Shown: positions 11,501 to 32,759 of the stretch, in pieces
Position numbering within the stretch: position 1 is the stretch's first letter
How the letters are laid out: every line of letters begins with the position of its first letter
Source of the DNA: a virus
Strand: one strand, 5' to 3'
Virus genome (UHGV): UHGV-0040082
DNA: 33,970 bases
Notes under the pieces: generated by a model
Databases searched by the model: none
What the model was told of the DNA's origin: nothing
Seen by the model: only the letters and a program-made list of their open reading frames with translations
Made by a program: the position numbers and the translations under genes

Positions 11501-14115
11501 CGAAAGCGGAAATTGACCGTATTGACAACGTTATCGCTGAAGAGAAAAAAGCAACGGCTGAATCACTGAAAACCATCACGGCAGAAATGAACACGATGGA
11601 TTCCAACCTTAAAGGTCAGATCTCCAGTGTGGAACGCGCAGTGGCTGACGAGGCTAGTGCCCGCGCTGAAGCTATTAACGGTGTGAACGCCTCAATAAGC
11701 AATCTCGACAAGAAAACGGATGCCAGCGTCAATAGGCTTGATCAGGCTATTGCAGATGAAACGAACGCCCGCACACAGGCGGTCAGTGACGTTAACGCAA
11801 GTATCTCGGTACTTGATAAGAAAACTGACGCCAGCGTTAAACGCCTGGATCAGGCAATCGCTGACGAAACCAGCGCAAGAACCGAAGCTATCAGTGGCGT
11901 GAACGCATCAATTTCAACGCTTGATAGCAAAGTGGAAAGCAATATAACGCGCATAGATAAAGCTATTGCAGATGAAACGCAGGCGCGTACAGACGCAATA
12001 AGCGGCGTCAAAGCGAGCATTAACACACTTGAAGGCAACACCAATTCAGAAGTTAAACGTCTGGATCAGGCAATCGCTGACGAGGCCAGTGCCCGCACAC
12101 AGGCGGTAAGTGATGTAAAAGCATCAGTAAGCAACCTTGAAAGCAAAACTGACGCCAGCGTTAAACGCCTGGATAAAGCTATTGCAGACGAAACAAGCGC
12201 ACGCAGCGAAGCTATTAGTGGGGTAAATGCCTCAGTATCAGCGCTCGACAAGAAAACCGATTCAAGCATAAGCCGCCTTGATAAAGCCATTGCGGATGAA
12301 ACAAGCGCGAGAACCGAAGCCATCAACGGTGTGAATGCGTCAATTTCCACACTCGACGGCAAGGTTACAAGTAACGTTAGCCGCCTTGATAAAGCAATAT
12401 CAGACGAAACGAAGGCAAGAAGCGACGCAATAACAGAGGTTAAAGCAGACTTAACAACGCTTGAGAACAGCACAAACGCCAGCGTTAAGCGTCTTGATCA
12501 GGCAATTGCCGATGAATCAAGCGCCCGCGCACAAGCAATATCAGGACTCAGCGCAAATCTTGGCACTGTTGAAAATAATGTTGGCAAAAACAGCGACGAA
12601 ATAAATCAGGCAAAAGCAAGCCTGCAAAACGCATCTATTGCACTTATCAATAACTCAATCGCTCAAACCAACACGCGTGTTACTCTTTCAGCCCAATACA
12701 AGAAAGGAATCAGAGAAACCAACGCGAAAATTGACCGCATTGACAATGTTGTAGCAGAAGAGAAAAAAGCAACGGCAGAAGCCATTAGCGGGGTAAGCGC
12801 ATCGATCACCGATCTTGATAAGAAAACTGAAGCAAGCGTTAACCGCCTTGACAGGGCGATTGCAGACGAAACAAGCGCCCGCAGCGAGGCTATCAGCGGC
12901 GTGAATGCGTCAATTTCCACGCTTGATAGTAATGTGAAAAGCGACATTACCAGGATGGACAAAGCCATCGCCGATGAAACAAAAGCACGCGCAGACGCAA
13001 TAAGCGGCCTTAGCGCATCGCTTACCAGTACGATCAACTCAAAAGTGTCTGAAGTGTCAACGGCACTTTCTACGCATGAGGAATCAAGTGCAGAAAAATT
13101 TAGCCAGATCTCGGCGTCTTTCGAATCAGTAAACTCAAGCATTACAGAATGGTCGCAGGCAATGGCTACAGCAGATAAGGCGTTGTCAACGAAAATTGAT
13201 CAGCTAACAGTGACTGTTAACGGGAATAAGACGGCAATAGAGACGACATCTAAAGCGTTAACCGACTTTAAGGGTAATGTTGATGCGTCATATTCAATTA
13301 AGCTCGCCACCGACAACAACGGCATGAAATACGCAACAGGTATGTCACTTGGCCTTACTGGTGATGGGACCAACTTTCAGTCGCAGTGTATTTTCCTTGT
13401 TGACCGCTTCGTGTTAATGACTGACGCTAACGGTTCGTATCAAACGCCTTTCTATGTAACTAATGGCGCAATGTATGTAAGAGAAGCGTTTATTAAAGAC
13501 GGCACTATCAACTCCGCCAAAATAGCTGATCTAATACAGTCAGTTAATTATAGCTGGGAAGGCGCGACAGGATGGGCGATAAATAAAAACGGTAACGCAG
13601 TATTTAACCAAGTAACCGTAAGGGGGACGGTATACGCTAATGCTGGTGTGTTTAACGGTACTGTTTACGCAACTGGCGGTAAATTTACTGGAGCAGTTGA
13701 AGCCACAAGTTTTGTTGGTGACGTAGCAAGTATGTCAGTGATAAACGAGAAAGTATTTCCGTCAATGAGGGGGAGCGGCAGCAGGGAAACTTCAAAAACT
13801 TATCTTGATTCAAGTTCATCAAGTTTATCAAAAACCGTTTACGTTATGATTCCGTATGATTTGTCATACTATACACATAGTGAATCTTCTCGTATCAGCG
13901 TAACTATAAACATAAACGGACACGCAAAAACAATTAATATAGAAAGGCCAGCATCAGGTCCATCAATGTCATCTGTCGCGGTGCACTGTGTACATGACCT
14001 AACATACCCAACAATTACAGTCAAGGTTACGGAAAACTTTACCAATACATCCGCTGCATCAATAAGAAAACCAGGCTTGATACTTATAACAAGAAGTTCA
14101 GGAACATGGGTATAA
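8566..14115 (+). CDS. J: Host specificity protein J (central tail fiber / tip attachment), with a large repeat insert
   Basis: 1849 aa. N-terminal ~800 aa and C-terminal ~330 aa follow recalled lambda J (e.g. ILSEGPI.GP, YHLRG.I..VP.NYN, AFGCTSRGQA.RAG.WL, HFTPGD.IEI.D, AAQH.P.K.A.VDNGA). Residues ~830-1510 are a repeat-rich insert not in lambda J. Confidence 0.9.
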   Translation: MSSGGGKAKTPTLLNDNLYHKQFYRVLDILSEGPIYGPVNQKAPLNDVMLNDTPVTDANGNTSIPGISVAWRNGTADQSPINGFNAIESTVIVNAKVTHDTPIIRTVSDPNVTRVRLNLGVDALVQSDEKGNQYNTSVMLMVDVKPSSSSTWSLIKDIHIGPGKQSGEYLEAHIIKAPDEKPFDIRVRRVTADSHGDLLRNDTRWSSYSEIIDDNLSYPHTAVAGAVIDHDQYTDTPTRTYHLRGLIVDVPDNYNTETRAYSGLWLGGFKKAYTNNPAWIFRYLVKNERFGLAKHAGYIDVDDGALYVLSQYCDQLVDDGYGGLEPRMTLNAYITEQMSARDLLDNIAGMFRGIALWDGQRLTVMIDAPQDPIATITNANVVDGAFTRSSLPLAECYNAVIVSWTDPENGWEQSKEYVADDELIARDGYNETTLEAFGCTSRGQAYRAGKWLIETAKREPSKFTFKMARDAIHFTPGDIIEILDNNRAGARLGGRIVANNGRVITVDKVDSEYIAPGDTISLLDSDGKFKKHQITGVSGNKITLASAPAWIRNGTVFAVSTNAAKPVLCRIVSVAETENNSVYTIEAAQHDPHKQAVVDNGAIFEVNNDTLNHFRVPNIENLKVLNIGSETVQCRATWETLTTTHRLTFEIRVYNSAGAVVKSYETTNYSYDFYGIDAGTYSLGIRGRNDTGMKGAESIVDLVIGAPAAPVGVNWVPGVFQATVYPISRTTLTTDTSYEFYYSGEKQITDPASVTTKAQYTGRGHQWTFGGMNTGHTYYVYVRTRNAFGVSDFVEASGKPTENFDEISDYVTKDVMNSEQFKEMIGDIKDLGDRTDVIENATNELKAATDNLKTATDNLTNITDDLRTETDNLTNITEDLRNDTDNLITETGSIKADTDTLKKETEDLYKKVKENADDIGQHESRIDSLEVSSEKVGSELAQAKASLQNASLALINNSLAQTNTRVTLTAQYKKGRTETKAEIDRIDNVIAEEKKATAESLKTITAEMNTMDSNLKGQISSVERAVADEASARAEAINGVNASISNLDKKTDASVNRLDQAIADETNARTQAVSDVNASISVLDKKTDASVKRLDQAIADETSARTEAISGVNASISTLDSKVESNITRIDKAIADETQARTDAISGVKASINTLEGNTNSEVKRLDQAIADEASARTQAVSDVKASVSNLESKTDASVKRLDKAIADETSARSEAISGVNASVSALDKKTDSSISRLDKAIADETSARTEAINGVNASISTLDGKVTSNVSRLDKAISDETKARSDAITEVKADLTTLENSTNASVKRLDQAIADESSARAQAISGLSANLGTVENNVGKNSDEINQAKASLQNASIALINNSIAQTNTRVTLSAQYKKGIRETNAKIDRIDNVVAEEKKATAEAISGVSASITDLDKKTEASVNRLDRAIADETSARSEAISGVNASISTLDSNVKSDITRMDKAIADETKARADAISGLSASLTSTINSKVSEVSTALSTHEESSAEKFSQISASFESVNSSITEWSQAMATADKALSTKIDQLTVTVNGNKTAIETTSKALTDFKGNVDASYSIKLATDNNGMKYATGMSLGLTGDGTNFQSQCIFLVDRFVLMTDANGSYQTPFYVTNGAMYVREAFIKDGTINSAKIADLIQSVNYSWEGATGWAINKNGNAVFNQVTVRGTVYANAGVFNGTVYATGGKFTGAVEATSFVGDVASMSVINEKVFPSMRGSGSRETSKTYLDSSSSSLSKTVYVMIPYDLSYYTHSESSRISVTININGHAKTINIERPASGPSMSSVAVHCVHDLTYPTITVKVTENFTNTSAASIRKPGLILITRSSGTWV
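11629..13080 (+). repeat. Tandem 108-bp (36-aa) coding repeats inside J, about 11 copies in two arrays
   Basis: Repeating unit RLDQAIADETSARTEAISGVNASISTLDSK.....VK visible in protein and DNA; the segment AKASLQNASLALINNSLAQTNTRVTLTAQYKKG...IDRIDNV.AEEKKATAE occurs twice (DNA ~11386 and ~12604). Confidence 0.8.
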
Positions 14116-25540: not shown

Positions 25541-26587
25541 TCAAAGAGCGCCACATCGTGTATCACGTAGCGTTTTTGGTTTAAGTAGAAAATCCAGTGT
25601 CGCAGTAAAGCCATTGCCGAAGTAAAAATCTGAAGCCGTGTTTTTGAACGTTTCAAAGTAGGCGACAAAGCCGTTGATGCTTTTGTCTTTCAGGTAGTCA
25701 GTGAACGCATAAATCTTGCGTTCAAGATCCCTATCCAGTTCGGCAGGTGGCAACAGGCCATCAAACGTGCTGTTAAATGCCTCCACTACGTCGGCAGCGT
25801 TTGCAGTGGCTGACAGTTTGCGCCATTTTTCAGCATCAGCCAGATACCCATCAAATTTAGTTACCCGGCAAATGTTTATAGGCTTAGGTGTTCCACCACG
25901 GCTACGCCATTGCGTTAAAGCCCACTCAATCACTAATGTGATCTCATCCTCCGTATACGCTTTACGTGTTTTTGTTTCTGTCAGTAGTTCGATGAATGGC
26001 TTCGCATCACGACATTTGCATCCTGCCTTGTCGTTGTAGAAGGCCAGGCAACGCAACGCCGCTTCGTTTACGCCATCATGATTGACATGTTTTTCTTCTG
26101 GGGGGATATAAGGGGGTATATTTTTAATGTTCTCTTTACTGGTTATATATGACTGGTTAGGGTGACTCTGTGTCACTACCCCCGGTGACTCTGTGTCACT
26201 ACCCTGGTGACTCTGTGTCACTACCCCCGGTGACTCTGTGTCACTACCCTGGTGACTCTGTGTCACTACCCCCGGTGTCACAGTGACACTACCATGCAAT
26301 GACGGAAGGACTATTACATAGAAATTACTAGTTTGCTCTTTTCCTCCGATTAAGTATCTTGGTTGTTTAATCAACAACCCTTTTTCACAAAGTGAGTCTA
26401 CAGCCCTCATAGCTGTTCTTTTGCTGATCTCACACTCCTTTGCTATGTGATGGTAAGAAGGGTAACACTCGCCGTTATCATTAGCGTTATCAGCTAACTT
26501 CAACAGCACTAGTTTGTGCATTGGGTCGCCGACCTCAGTATGGAAGACCTCTACCATTAGCCGCATACTCATAAGCATTAACCTCAT
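25541..26587 (-). CDS. Replication initiator (lambda O-like) containing the origin iterons
   Basis: N-terminal winged-helix/HTH segment, internal peptide repeats GVVTQSHQGSDTESP x3 encoded by DNA iterons, gene sits upstream of the DnaB helicase. Exact start uncertain. Confidence 0.65.
   Translation of the reverse strand: MRLMLMSMRLMVEVFHTEVGDPMHKLVLLKLADNANDNGECYPSYHHIAKECEISKRTAMRAVDSLCEKGLLIKQPRYLIGGKEQTSNFYVIVLPSLHGSVTVTPGVVTQSHQGSDTESPGVVTQSHQGSDTESPGVVTQSHPNQSYITSKENIKNIPPYIPPEEKHVNHDGVNEAALRCLAFYNDKAGCKCRDAKPFIELLTETKTRKAYTEDEITLVIEWALTQWRSRGGTPKPINICRVTKFDGYLADAEKWRKLSATANAADVVEAFNSTFDGLLPPAELDRDLERKIYAFTDYLKDKSINGFVAYFETFKNTASDFYFGNGFTATLDFLLKPKTLRDTRCGAL
26161..26293. repeat. Origin-like iteron array: five 22/23-bp direct repeats plus one palindromic variant
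   Basis: ggtgactctgtgtcactaccc(cc/t) repeated five times (26161-26273), then ggtgtcacagtgacactacc; each unit has internal dyad symmetry GTGAC..GTCAC; AT-rich tract at 26100-26160 on the downstream side. Confidence 0.7.
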
Positions 26588-26593
26588 GACGAA

Positions 26594-26839
26594 CTAAAAC
26601 ATTAACTGATAAACACAGAAGAAACCTGGTAGCTGGCTGATTAGGCCGCTTCTTTTCAGTTGATGAAGTGCAGAGATAGTATCGCGTAACGGAATTTCGC
26701 ACATTTCAGCGATTTCTTCCGGCGTTACTTCGCTTTTGCCGTTGCATCCGGCCTTTGTTGCCAGTGCAATTAAGATGAGTTTTTGCGCCGGATCATTGTT
26801 ATTCAGGCGAATATCAAAAGCCTTGCGCACGTAATACAT
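26594..26839 (-). CDS. Small HTH protein at the Cro position
   Basis: 81 aa; first gene of the minus operon, divergent from the repressor; RBS GGAGA; its HTH resembles the N-terminal HTH of the adjacent O-like protein rather than a classical Cro. Confidence 0.5.
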   Translation of the reverse strand: MYYVRKAFDIRLNNNDPAQKLILIALATKAGCNGKSEVTPEEIAEMCEIPLRDTISALHQLKRSGLISQLPGFFCVYQLMF

Positions 26840-27143
26840 ATTCTATCTCCTATGATTAGAGTGAACGCGCGGGCGGGCATCCCATTAGCATTAGATAGCA
26901 GTGACTGACCGCTCAACAGATCCCGCCGTTGCGTGATATTTGTTTTTCGCTTCGCAGCGACACCGGATTTTTAAAGAGCTTAAGGCGTCGGCCTTTTTGT
27001 GCTTTCCCTTATCTTTTTCCTTGCATCATTGCAAGTATGGCTTTACCTTGTCAGCAAGTTTACAGAATGGCGCTAACGGGTCAAGACTTAAAAAACACGT
27101 TTTGTGACTTGCATCAAAATTTTTTAGGTTATAGGGTAGCGAC
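26840..27143. promoter_or_regulatory. Divergent control region between Cro-position gene and repressor gene
   Basis: 304-bp intergenic region between divergent starts; repeated element CTTGCATCA at 27019-27027 and 27109-27117, the first within inverted repeat TTGCA-N4-TGCAA; weak TTGCAT/TATAGG promoter-like pair just before the repressor ATG. Confidence 0.45.
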
Positions 27144-27647
27144 ATGAAAACAAAATGGTATGACTTAGCAAAACAACTCATGCGGGCGCAGGGCATGAGC
27201 CAGGATTCATTGGCTGATCTTATGGGGATAACCAAAGGCGGCCTTTCTCACTGGCTGAACGGTCGCCGTGAGCCGAATCTTGAAGATATTGCGCGTATCA
27301 TGCGGGCGCTTGGGCGTCGGCAATTCACTGTTACTCATGACGGAATGGTCATTGATGATTCTGTTTCTAACACGTTGCTGGGAGCGCCACCGCGTGATTT
27401 AGGCAGTTATCCGGTTGTTGACTGGAAGGATGTAGCAAACAATATGGAAGGCACACACCGATCAACATTGCCACACGTTGCTACTAGCGTTATTTGTTCG
27501 GATGATAGTTATTGGCTGGTTGCTAAAGGTGAATCAATGAACGCACCGCAGGGGTTAAGCATCCCGGCGGGGACTATGATACTCGTTGACCCGCACGCGC
27601 CAGCTATTGACGGAAAACTTGTTATAGCACAACTGGAGGAAGGGTAG
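27144..27647 (+). CDS. CI-like repressor (HTH plus S24 peptidase domain), ended prematurely by in-frame TAG
   Basis: N-terminal HTH (MSQDSLADLMGITKGGLSHWLNGRREP), S24 Ser motif GESM; TAG at 27645-27647 comes before the expected catalytic Lys segment. Confidence 0.75.
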   Translation: MKTKWYDLAKQLMRAQGMSQDSLADLMGITKGGLSHWLNGRREPNLEDIARIMRALGRRQFTVTHDGMVIDDSVSNTLLGAPPRDLGSYPVVDWKDVANNMEGTHRSTLPHVATSVICSDDSYWLVAKGESMNAPQGLSIPAGTMILVDPHAPAIDGKLVIAQLEEG

Positions 27648-27791
27648 ATACCTACGTTTAAGCAGTTGATTATTGATGGAGGCCGAAAACTTTTGCGTTC
27701 GCTTAATCCGCTGTATCCGCCAATCCCTATGAATCCAGAATCAAAAATATTGGGCGTGGTGGTTGATGCGAAGATCGTAAACCTGCCATAA
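27648..27791 (+). other. In-frame continuation of the repressor reading frame after the TAG
   Basis: Same frame translates to IPTFKQLIIDGGRKLLRSLNPLYPPIPMNPESKILGVVVDAKIVNLP, resembling the C-terminus of lambda CI (..FTFKKLI..LQPLNPQYP.I.....VVGKV..), ending at TAA 27789-27791. Confidence 0.7.
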
Positions 27792-27797
27792 ACATTA

Positions 27798-27818
27798 GCC
27801 GCCGGATGGCGGCTTTTC
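27798..27818 (+). terminator. Rho-independent terminator after the repressor frame
   Basis: Hairpin gccgcc-ggat-ggcggc followed by ttttctt. Confidence 0.65.
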
Positions 27819-27915
27819 TTCGCCCAAAAAAACACCAAAACGTAAACAGAAAACGCTATTTATTGTTTAGATATCAATAGCATATAAAATATTTTAAAAA
27901 AGTATACAAAATGGA

Positions 27916-27944
27916 TTGACTCGGTGTTTTACGGGGCGTATATT
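27916..27944 (+). promoter_or_regulatory. Near-consensus sigma70-type promoter (pL-like) for the plus-strand early operon
   Basis: TTGACT (27916-27921), 17-nt spacer, TATATT (27939-27944). Confidence 0.6.
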
Positions 27945-28198
27945 GCGAATCAAAGGAAGGGCGTAGGTAACAAAAGCAGCTTCCTGGCACTTTAAAAATC
28001 AGGCTTAACACCTTGTCAACCGTGGAGTAACTCCCCGATGGGGGACCGAAAGCGGCACTGATAACAAGGCGCATGGGGTGTTTAAAGCGTTACATCCCCC
28101 ACGAAACCGCACGCAAGGCGACGAGTCAGCTTGCTTGGAGTGAGCAAGGTCACACCGGAAACGGCGATGATTGCGGGATTAGTTGAAAGATGTTAAGC

Positions 28199-28236
28199 CG
28201 CTCATTAAAAATCTGGTCAGCCGCTGGAAGTGCGGC
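28199..28236 (+). promoter_or_regulatory. Candidate nut-like site (boxA-like plus boxB-like hairpin)
   Basis: CGCTCATTA (28199-28207; compare lambdoid boxA CGCTCTTA), then hairpin GCCGC-tggaagt-GCGGC at 28220-28236, about 55 nt upstream of the N-like gene. Confidence 0.4.
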
Positions 28237-28292
28237 AATTAACGAAGATGATTTTTTATTAAGTTTCATCAAGGATATACGGAGATCAGATT

Positions 28293-28583
28293 ATGAGCGT
28301 TACAATTATGTATGGAAAATGTGATAGCAAAATGAACGCCAGGGAACGCAGAAGGATAAAAAGAGAAAACGAAAGAAAATCATCACCTGCAATTAATAAA
28401 ACAGACAATGTGGATAAAGCTATTCGATTTGCAAACGAGGAAAGGTGCAAACCAAATAGCATTAAAGAACGTCGCAAAGGATCAGTAAAATGGTATACGG
28501 AAAATGAAAGCGGCAGCTACTACCACGCAACGCAACCACGCCATTTAGGGGAGAAACCCCTGGATAAAGTCCGTTACCATTAA
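28293..28583 (+). CDS. N-like antiterminator candidate (arginine-rich motif protein)
   Basis: 96 aa; N-terminal arginine-rich segment NARERRRIKRENERK; first gene downstream of the pL-like promoter and nut-like site; RBS GGAG. Confidence 0.45.
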   Translation: MSVTIMYGKCDSKMNARERRRIKRENERKSSPAINKTDNVDKAIRFANEERCKPNSIKERRKGSVKWYTENESGSYYHATQPRHLGEKPLDKVRYH

Positions 28584-28732
28584 TACAAAATGTAAACATT
28601 CGGAGGTGACATTATGGTTATTCAGGCGCTTCAATTCAAACTGGCAGTAGCGGAAATGCTTCACGATGCCGAAATGTGGAGCGCCGCGAATAAAGCCTTA
28701 TACATAGTGTTAACAGCGAAGGAGATTAAAGA

Positions 28733-29374
28733 GTGAAAACAGAGTTACACAAAAAGCTGTGGACGATTCAGCAAACACTGAACGCTCCAAAGGGGCAATA
28801 CAATAAGTTCGGTGGATATTCATACCGATCAGCGGAGGATATTTTAGAGGCTGTAAAACCACTACTTCAAAATGTCACGTTGATGGTTAGTGATGAAATT
28901 GTCCTGATTGGTGATCGCTATTATGTGAAAGCTACGGCAACACTAAGCGACGGTGAGGATTCAATTTCAGCAACTGCATTTGCAAGGGAAGAAAAAGAGC
29001 AAAAAGGGATGACGGCTGGGCAGCTAACTGGCGCGACATCAAGTTACGCGCGGAAATATGCCCTGAACGGCCTGTTCTGTATAGACGATGCGAAAGATTT
29101 AGATACTGACGCTTACGCTAAGCAGACTGGCCAGCAGCCTCGCCAGCAGAAAAACCCACCAAAACAACAACCACAGCAGCAGAAAGCGCCGCCAAATCCT
29201 GATGAGGTGTTAGCGCGTTTCTGTGATGCGGCAGCGAAAGCGCAGGACGCTAACAAGTTACGCGAGATCTTCGGGAAGTGCTGGAAACTACTTCCTAAAG
29301 ATTCAGAGCAGCAACAGAAAGCCAAAGACGTTTATGATATTCGCTTAAAAGAGATTAACGGGGAGATCGGTTAA
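28733..29374 (+). CDS. erf: ERF-family single-strand annealing protein
   Basis: GTG start with AAGGAG RBS; N-terminal two-thirds resemble recalled P22 Erf (LNAPK.QYN.FG.Y.YRS.EDILE.VKPLL, IVLIGDRYYVKATAT, GATSSYARKY.LNGLF.IDDAKD); Gln/Pro-rich linker. Confidence 0.8.
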   Translation: MKTELHKKLWTIQQTLNAPKGQYNKFGGYSYRSAEDILEAVKPLLQNVTLMVSDEIVLIGDRYYVKATATLSDGEDSISATAFAREEKEQKGMTAGQLTGATSSYARKYALNGLFCIDDAKDLDTDAYAKQTGQQPRQQKNPPKQQPQQQKAPPNPDEVLARFCDAAAKAQDANKLREIFGKCWKLLPKDSEQQQKAKDVYDIRLKEINGEIG

Positions 29375-30311: not shown

Positions 30312-30421
30312 GCTTTGCAAAAATTGCCGCATTGCTTGCGGCTTTATCTATCGCCGTGCTGTATCTCAGCGTATCTCTTTATATCACGGTAGCGATCATT
30401 AAACTCATTACTAACATGTGA
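30308..30421 (+). CDS. Possible 37-aa hydrophobic membrane peptide
   Basis: MSFAKIAALLAALSIAVLYLSVSLYITVAIIKLITNM; ATG overlaps the upstream stop (ATGA). Confidence 0.3.
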   Translation: MSFAKIAALLAALSIAVLYLSVSLYITVAIIKLITNM

Positions 30422-32566: not shown

Positions 32567-32759
32567 ACAATATAAAGAATGGAAGATTCCAGAATCAGCA
32601 ACAAAGGCAGCGCCCGGAATATTTTCGGGCGTTTATTTTTATATGGAAGGTAAATGGTATTTCGGCAGCAGGCCGGATCACTATTATCAAGAAGTGTGCA
32701 AATCTCACACATGGGACATTAATGAGCGCGTGCAAGGCGGTGTAATAGACGAGGTTTAA
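32556..32759 (+). CDS. Hypothetical protein (67 aa)
   Basis: ORF; no domain recognised. Confidence 0.35.
   Translation: MKFKQYKEWKIPESATKAAPGIFSGVYFYMEGKWYFGSRPDHYYQEVCKSHTWDINERVQGGVIDEV

Follow-up and report, generated by a model that had tools for sequence, protein, structure and literature searches.

A probable N-type antitermination module of the mEp021 type in a temperate coliphage genome, with a leader RNA that occurs in two natural forms

We analysed a 33,970-nt stretch of viral DNA (UHGV-0040082; hereafter the window) and found that the locus around gp17 is very probably the early-operon control module of a temperate coliphage of the mEp021 type (mEpimmI group), acting through N-type processive antitermination. 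The assignment draws on sequence elements, their conservation, covariation of a hairpin stem and the probable homology of the first gene product to the N family. Positions 27800-28600 share 98.3% nucleotide identity with mEp010, 96% with MagusPhagus and mEp515, and 93% with mEp021, and they recur in 35 of 5,426 complete E. coli genomes, always as a single copy in a prophage. The 96-aa open reading frame at 28293-28583 corresponds to mEp021_17 (gp17), and its product is 99% identical to the mEp010 protein and 94% identical to that of mEp021. The order repressor, gp17, kil-like gene, erf, ssb, abc2 is common to the window, mEp021 and mEp010, and gp17, nutR1, nutL and the repressor gene are each near-identical to their mEp021/mEp010 counterparts. 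Antitermination by Gp17 at nut sites is a system already described for mEp021, and the module in the window is that same system rather than a new one. The two differ only as alleles: boxA reads CTCATTAAAAATC in the window and mEp010 but CTCATTAACAATC in mEp021, the repressor gene of the window carries an amber codon (TAG at 27645) that no relative has, and nutR2 falls just past the window end for this phage.

PMC11893012, citing Valencia-Toxqui 2023 (Arch Virol 168:92), presents Gp17 as an N-lambda-like protein that was experimentally shown to act in early antitermination of mEp021. It names nutL, nutR1 and nutR2 as the targets of Gp17; these lie, respectively, upstream of the repressor gene, upstream of gp17 and downstream of a cytosine methyltransferase gene. 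PMC11893012, citing Valencia-Toxqui 2023 and Kameyama 1999, also reports that mEp021-type phages are Nus-dependent and that terminators are read through. The supplements of PMC11893012 contain no nut sequences; position and sequence logic suggest that the site at 28199-28236, which corresponds to 12222-12259 of MH706966, is the published nutR1, and we use that name for it here. The original prediction, which had been made from the letters of the window, proposed N-type antitermination of the plus-strand early operon, and this proposal is now supported by the Gp17 literature, by the match to phrog_271, by the nut copies and by covariation. Its description of the promoter as 'pL-like' fits the gene content of the operon (N, kil-like gene, erf, ssb, abc2), but the literature names the arm R and the site nutR1.

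Table 1. Features of the early control region and their positions in the window.
Feature	Position	Strand	Sequence or structure	Remarks
nutL	26947-26979	-	boxA and spacer GCTCTTTAAAAATCCGG (26979 to 26963); boxB UCGCU-GCGA-AGCGA (26960 to 26947)	
Candidate promoter of the divergent (nutL) operon	27057-27084	-	TTGACC-16-TAAACT	9 of 12 positions
Intrinsic terminator of the repressor gene	27797-27814	+	AGCCGCC-GGAT-GGCGGCT and T run	
Early sigma-70 promoter of the gp17 operon	27916-27944	+	TTGACT-17-TATATT	10 of 12 positions
Leader (5' UTR), long form	27951-28292	+		about 342 nt
Upstream degenerate boxA-like copy	27987-28003	+	GCACTTTAAAAATCAGG	about +36 from the start site
Self-closing structured RNA domain	28002-28199	+	closing helix GGCUUAACA/UGUUAAGCC	198 nt
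nutR1 boxA and conserved spacer	28199-28216	+	CGCTCATTAAAAATCTGG	
nutR1 boxB hairpin	28220-28236	+	GCCGC-UGGAAGU-GCGGC	-10.1 kcal/mol
gp17 coding sequence	28293-28583	+	Shine-Dalgarno GGAG 28281-28284	96 aa
Predicted intrinsic terminator within the gp17 operon	30326-30342	+	GCCGCATTGCTTGCGGC then TTTATCT	
Predicted strong intrinsic terminator, gp17 operon	32609-32633	+	11-bp stem then TATTTTT	
nutR2	mEp021/mEp010, between cytosine methyltransferase gene and ninF		TGCTCTTTAAAAATCCGG-CA-GCGC UGAAAU GCGU	

The near-consensus promoter that had been proposed past the repressor terminator is present, with hexamers at 27916-27921 and 27939-27944 and a 17-nt spacer, and it is the top-scoring promoter-like site within 26500-29000. 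Both hexamers are invariant across the aligned close mEp-type relatives, and the two most divergent relatives, L009 and L010, carry TTGACA, with TATAGT in L009 as well. Transcription probably starts near 27950-27952, so that the leader up to the ATG at 28293 has nearly the length of ~340 nt that had been given for it. Upstream, the last position of the repressor gene is 27791, and its terminator, annotated as TERM_1 in mEp021 and kept in relatives, comes next. An operator search returned a shared 15-nt motif and TTGCATCA-like half-sites and nothing more, so control of the 27916 promoter by the repressor is presumed here. On the minus strand, the region of the candidate promoter at 27057-27084 is conserved in relatives, and the replication genes lie on this nutL arm, in a divergent operon.

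On the plus strand, gp17 is followed by a kil-like 40-aa open reading frame, erf, ssb and abc2, which is the gene content of the P22 left operon. Two predicted terminators lie within this operon: the one at 30326 occupies the position of TERM_2 of mEp021 and is presumably a target of read-through, and the one at 32609 is comparable in position to TERM_3. In mEp021 the gp17 strand runs on through nutR2 to ninF, ninG, rus and Q.

The promoter-proximal RNA of the gp17 operon contains a nut site with both boxA and boxB. The two elements named in the original prediction, a boxA-like sequence and a GCCGC-loop-GCGGC hairpin, are found as CGCTCATTA at 28199-28207 and as a predicted stem-loop within the layout CGCTCATTAAAAATCTGG-TCA-GCCGC UGGAAGU GCGGC. 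The boxA and spacer of nutR1 read GCTCTTTAACAATCTGG in relatives, which matches GCUCUUUAACAA, the sequence we take to be the rrn boxA core. A second copy, expected after the gene in the Cro position, was indeed found, but on the minus strand ahead of the first gene of the divergent replication-gene operon and not after Cro; a third occurs in relatives past the window end. Nut sites are thus present on both divergent early operons. At nutL the layout is GCTCTTTAAAAATCCGG-TG-UCGCU GCGA AGCGA, about 70 nt past the TTGACC-16-TAAACT candidate promoter, and this site is near-invariant in all relatives. In each of the three boxA-boxB sites, GCTCWTTAAAAATCYGG precedes a hairpin whose core is C-UGNRAN-G.

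Single elements of these sites stand close to what shuffled or random sequence would give: the 9-mer boxA alone is within chance (21 matches with at most one mismatch, 16.6 expected), and the boxB hairpin by itself scores marginally (z = -1.9; an equally good fold arose in 8 of 200 shuffles). Of the extended 17-mer GCTCWTTAAAAATCYGG there are three occurrences where 0.5 would be expected, and its two perfect copies each lie downstream of one of the divergent early promoters. A perfect match to CGCTCATTA at 32720-32728, on the minus strand, was set aside as due to chance: the AAAAATCYGG extension is missing and the site is antisense within a coding region. In a distant relative, L092, the genes stand in the same order and each arm bears a nut site, with a CGCU-GAAA-AGCG boxB on the N side and a UUGCU-GAAA-AGCAA boxB on the other arm, directly 3' of a Cro-like gene.

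The boxB stem covaries. Across nine orthologous and paralogous sites, changes occur on both sides in four of the five pairs, 87% of cells are paired, and the covariation score of 0.66, against 0.25 in shuffles, was reached by none of 500 shuffles and collapses in every slid register. Among relatives, the nutR1 boxB takes at least five stem forms (GCCGC/GCGGC, GCUAC/GUAGC, UGCAC/GUGCA, GCAC/GUGC and UCGC/GCGA), and nutR1, which PMC11893012 calls the most variable nut site, is variable because its boxB covaries. The loop-closing C-G pair and a U-G...A core are invariant. Inside that closing pair the loops measure 6-7 nt (UGGAAGU, UGAAAU, UGAAAA and UGCGAA), and none is a GNRA-like pentaloop of the GAAAA, GAAGA or GACAA kind. 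Most of them, of the form U-GNRA-N, could fold as a true GNRA tetraloop with U-A or U-U as the closing pair; the UGGAAGU loop of the window is an outlier, for which a clean GNRA fold needs a bulge. The original prediction had also named covariation between the arginine-rich motif of the protein and boxB. The UGGAAGU loop occurs only with motifs of the IKRENERK type and the 6-nt loops with the M/LKRA types, but the linked haplotypes are few and every Gp17 must read the invariant nutL, so we do not count this association as such covariation. A clean form of it is absent, one protein type having to read three different loops. The refuting outcome named in the original prediction nevertheless did not materialise, given the second nut copy in the window, the third in relatives and the covarying boxB stem. 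The boxB of the mEp group is a 4-5 bp stem with a U-GNRA-N loop rather than the pentaloop hairpin of lambda and P22.

Gp17 is a small basic protein with an N-proximal arginine-rich RNA-binding motif, NARERRRIKRENERK at residues 15-29, as had been read from the 96-aa frame, and N15, A16, R17, R20 and R24 are invariant across 20 family members. Translation from Met14, which would leave the motif N-terminal as in lambda, was considered and rejected: relatives carry Leu or Ile at residue 14, and a conserved GGAG precedes the ATG at 28293. Since Met14 is not conserved, we place the translation start at 28293. Over its full length Gp17 matches phrog_271 ('anti-termination protein N-like') with E = 4.7e-13; P22 gp24 belongs to the same family with E = 7e-40, as does lambda N with E = 4e-23. 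Against the Pfam N_peptide model PF25694, Gp17 scores 17.0 bits, below the cutoff of 27.9, and P22 gp24 scores 152 bits. A profile of 20 Gp17 homologues aligned by hhalign to P22 gp24 with E = 3.7e-4 at a probability of only 36%, covering 47 columns of the N-terminal half at 38% identity, and the aligned blocks are MxVxIxYGK, the arginine-rich core NA(K/R)xRR and DxVxKAI. Neither Gp17 nor its family profile had a sequence match in the PDB among solved N proteins and peptides. The most conserved part of the family is the C-terminal 30 residues, KWYxENESGNYxHATQPRxLGEKPLDKVRYH, which have no P22 counterpart and may contact the host machinery.

The Gp17 family is very narrow: a search of 5.8 billion proteins gave 31 clusters, at 61-99% identity. 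A scan of GTDB species representatives returned no Gp17 relatives, the 45 Gp17 loci in IMG/VR are all mEp-like, and tblastn of 50,697 phage records recovered seven mEp-type phages and no others. Searched exhaustively with HMMER, 1.84 billion representatives yielded the family and one distant relative, P0033, which provides no statistical bridge between Gp17 and P22 gp24; a further match, P0032, is a repetitive giant protein and was discarded as spurious.

Gp17 and its nut sites resemble P22 gp24 and P22 nutR more than their lambda counterparts. Gp17 and gp24 fall in one PHROG, and both have a 13-residue N-terminal extension before the arginine-rich motif (MSVTIMYGK in Gp17, MTVITYGK in P22), the arginine-rich core NA(K/R)xRR and the DxVxKAI motif; both operons contain kil, erf and abc2. 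P22 nutR (CGCTCTTTACCAATCTGAACCGCCGACAACGCGG) and nutR1 have in common their boxA (GCTCTTTA), the AATCTG spacer and, next to it, a hairpin that is short and rich in GC, of the form CCGC / 7-nt loop / GCGG. There are also differences. Gp17 stays under the gathering score of PF25694, the Pfam family to which gp24 belongs, and the C-terminal halves of the two proteins are unrelated; the loops are UGNRAN or UGGAAGU in the mEp group, whereas P22 has a GACAA pentaloop; the mEp group has three nut sites and P22 two; and in the mEp group Q ends the operon that contains N, with the replication genes on the opposite arm. Lambda N resembles Gp17 in being small and basic and in its N-terminal arginine-rich motif (MNARERRRIKR in Gp17, MDAQTRRRERR in lambda N); each is encoded by the first gene past an early promoter beside the repressor gene, and both are placed in the same PHROG. 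No pairwise match between Gp17 and lambda N is detectable, however, and the motif is internal in Gp17 but begins at residue 1 in lambda N; the boxB loop type and the genome architecture are also unlike those of lambda, and the literature classes mEp021-type phages as non-lambdoid. The two systems agree in the composition of nut from boxA and boxB and, according to PMC11893012, in their dependence on Nus factors.

Together, these elements suggest the following course of events. Host sigma-70 RNA polymerase would start at the 27916 promoter and transcribe the leader, whose RNA would present the boxA and boxB of nutR1. Gp17, made from the first gene, would bind boxB through its arginine-rich motif and, with NusB/S10 on boxA and with NusA and NusG, would form a complex that stays on the elongating polymerase; which Nus factor contacts which partner is drawn here presumptively. 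The polymerase so modified would pass the terminators at 30326 and 32609, and others further downstream, without stopping, permitting expression of the kil-like gene, erf, ssb and abc2 and reaching, past the window, the methylases, nutR2 and Q. Gp17 would act likewise at nutL on the divergent replication-gene operon.

The leader of the gp17 operon exists in two forms among relatives, a long one of ~342 nt and a short one of about 105-130 nt. The difference of ~213 nt consists of a 198-nt segment (28002-28199) and a duplicated boxA-like sequence. The long leader has a predicted folding energy of -113.8 kcal/mol (z = -4.6), and the 198-nt segment closes on itself as a domain with two multi-helix junctions and several hairpins (alifold energy about -70 kcal/mol). 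This domain is found in about three quarters of mEp-type phages and nowhere else, and it is missing from mEp013, PAR, L009, L010 and L089; where present it is 95-99% identical, against roughly 75-80% in its flanks. Its hairpin at 28130-28148 shows three compensatory pairs between two haplotypes and a U-A to U-G change, another helix shows a G-U to G-C change, and 14 of its 21 variable columns are unpaired. The domain is unannotated as RNA. Rfam gave no match at gathering thresholds across the whole window, nor any for the domain searched alone; with E values up to 10 in the surrounding 1-kb region, none lay inside the domain, and antisense_SR1 (28182-28326, E = 1.8), which clips its 3' end, was the sole match touching it. 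We also considered a MITE-like element, given the terminal inverted repeats GGCTTAACA/TGTTAAGCC and flanking direct repeats. A check of copy number in 31 E. coli genomes and 33 viral contigs found one copy per genome in one context only, so the domain is not a mobile repeat.

The two leader forms bear on which boxA copy belongs to the functional site. The upstream copy at 27987-28003 could be the functional one, acting with a hairpin from the 198-nt domain, and the elements at 28199-28236 would then be incidental. That copy lies where short-leader relatives and P22 nutL have boxA, it is invariant among long-leader phages, and PMC11893012 singles out nutR1 for its variability. It occurs only in long-leader relatives, however, and is missing in all short-leader phages, including the viable isolates mEp013, mEp044 and mEp554, whereas the downstream copy with its hairpin is present in every relative; no C-UGNRAN-G hairpin, common to nutL and nutR2, follows the upstream copy at the right distance; and the covarying boxB downstream fully accounts for the variability. 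The naturally occurring short leaders already imply that Gp17-dependent antitermination survives the loss of 27987-28199. We therefore regard this reading as very improbable and keep nutR1 at 28199-28236. It is also improbable, though slightly less so, that the middle of the leader is conserved for the 37-aa protein mEp021_16 (28073-28186) and not for RNA structure. No long-leader relative interrupts the frame, and the annotations of mEp021 and mEp010 include it, but PGAP calls no such gene in 31 E. coli genomes, its ribosome-binding site is poor, and conservation reaches beyond it on both sides (28002-28072 and 28187-28199). In its only variable block, five of seven codons are changed non-conservatively while the hairpin is preserved; among the remaining substitutions in the frame, third positions are not favoured (codon positions 1, 1, 2, 2, 3, 1, 3, 3), and the G-U pairs of the domain fit plus-strand RNA only. 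The frame was accordingly rejected as what keeps the leader conserved.

The role of Gp17 itself might also be read differently. In the minimum-free-energy fold, boxA and its spacer (28199-28218) can pair with 28284-28299, that is, with the stretch from the last Shine-Dalgarno G through the AUG to +6 of gp17, enclosing boxB, and analogous pairing between boxA/spacer and ribosome-binding site is found in six of eight leader variants, in differing registers. Lambda N reportedly represses its own translation through nutL, and a coupling of boxA to the ribosome-binding site of gp17 would resemble that autoregulation. Gp17 could on these grounds be chiefly a regulator of the translation or stability of its own leader, with the hairpin as operator and read-through not its role. 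We give this reading hardly any weight, the lowest of the alternatives considered: nut copies also occur at two sites far from gp17, each ahead of a long terminator-bearing operon; autoregulation by Gp17 would add to antitermination and not replace it; and antitermination by Gp17 is reported as experimentally shown in PMC11893012. The pairing may itself be partly incidental, because boxA is intrinsically complementary to the Shine-Dalgarno sequence. With N-type antitermination as the preferred reading, such pairing, if real, would couple translation of Gp17 to occupancy of nut.

The structured leader domain is the sole item at this locus that is possibly new. Tentatively, it could be an undescribed functional RNA, either a cis-regulator that tunes Gp17 synthesis or assembly of the nut complex, or a stable processed non-coding RNA; our best guess, held with low confidence, is that it modulates Gp17 expression or leader stability. 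The viability of the short-leader isolates mEp013, mEp044 and mEp554 implies that the domain is dispensable. The put RNA of HK022 consists of two promoter-proximal stem-loops that modify polymerase in cis and need no protein; the likeness of the 198-nt domain to it is one of position only, both being structured RNA close to a promoter.

As the Gp17/nut system has already been characterised, its recognition in the window chiefly validates the sequence-only reasoning behind the original prediction. For the biology of the group, the two natural leader forms amount to a ready-made deletion with which to test what long N leaders do, in phages that are as frequent in the human gut as lambdoid phages and that carry a textbook-style N/nut switch.

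The leader of gp17, the gene for the N-like antiterminator, is dimorphic across relatives, with a long form set against a short one. What distinguishes the long form is a 198-nt structured RNA domain, one hairpin of which shows compensatory changes; the domain is absent from the short-leader phages mEp013, mEp044, mEp554 and PAR and from the short-leader loci L009, L010 and L089. An Rfam search with the domain returned no match, and PGAP places no annotation within it. Further downstream in the leader, nucleotides 28199-28218 are predicted to pair with 28284-28299 through 7 + 9 base pairs that enclose boxB, bringing the nut boxA and spacer against the end of the Shine-Dalgarno sequence, the AUG and the first gp17 codons. 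Comparable boxA/spacer pairing, in shifted registers, was found in six of eight variant leaders, and such pairing with the gp17 start could serve translational coupling or autoregulation.

The sole distant Gp17 relative found was P0033 (115 aa), encoded at locus L092 (ENA ERZ27253218 k141_244742), where the surrounding gene order is the same as in the window. Sites combining a boxA with a GAAA-tetraloop boxB lie on both arms of this locus, and a Cro-like HTH gene immediately precedes the one on the arm opposite the N-like gene, the same arrangement as at lambda nutR.

Features of the early region and of the distant locus (window coordinates unless marked L092).
Feature	Position	Strand	Remark
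Replication initiator gene (O-like protein)	25541-26587	-	
First nutL-operon gene, 81 aa	26594-26839	-	Cro position
16-bp palindrome CTTGCATCATTGCAAG and half-site	27013-27028 and 27108-27117		in divergent region
15-nt motif AAGTTTACAGAATGG / AAGTATACAAAATGG	27056-27070 and 27900-27914		adjoins or overlaps both early promoters
CI-like repressor gene	27144-27791		HTH and S24 peptidase domain, 215 codons
boxA-like repeats around the 198-nt domain	27987-28003 and 28200-28216	+	
Structured RNA domain, 198 nt	28002-28199	+	self-closing; highly conserved in long-leader phages
40-aa ORF directly 3' of gp17	28614-28736		weak likeness to lambda Kil
boxA and GAAA-tetraloop boxB sites, both arms (L092)	1675-1715 and 2903-2934	- and +	

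On the nutL arm of the window, the first gene shares the position of Cro, but its 81-aa product resembles replication initiators rather than Cro, matching their N-terminal winged-helix part (phrog_4617, E = 1e-9). The O-like replication protein carries tandem 15-aa repeats, PGVVTQSHQGSDTES, in two full copies and a partial third (about 26170-26286); at the DNA level these are 45-nt direct repeats, which look like origin iterons within the initiator gene. On the gp17 side, the 40-aa ORF occupies the position of kil in the P22 left operon; its match to Pfam Lambda_Kil falls under the cutoff (E = 2e-4), and phrog_2055 matches at E = 0.0015.

The 15-nt motif, the palindrome and the half-site are all kept in relatives and are candidate repressor operators. 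Within the repressor gene itself, codon 168 is an in-frame amber TAG (27645-27647), whereas mEp010, mEp021 and all other relatives checked have CAG or CAA (Gln) there. Termination at this codon would yield a repressor lacking its C-terminal 47 residues, and the amber-bearing phage could be a variant that forms clear plaques or is defective, or could need a suppressor host; alternatively, the codon may reflect a sequencing error.
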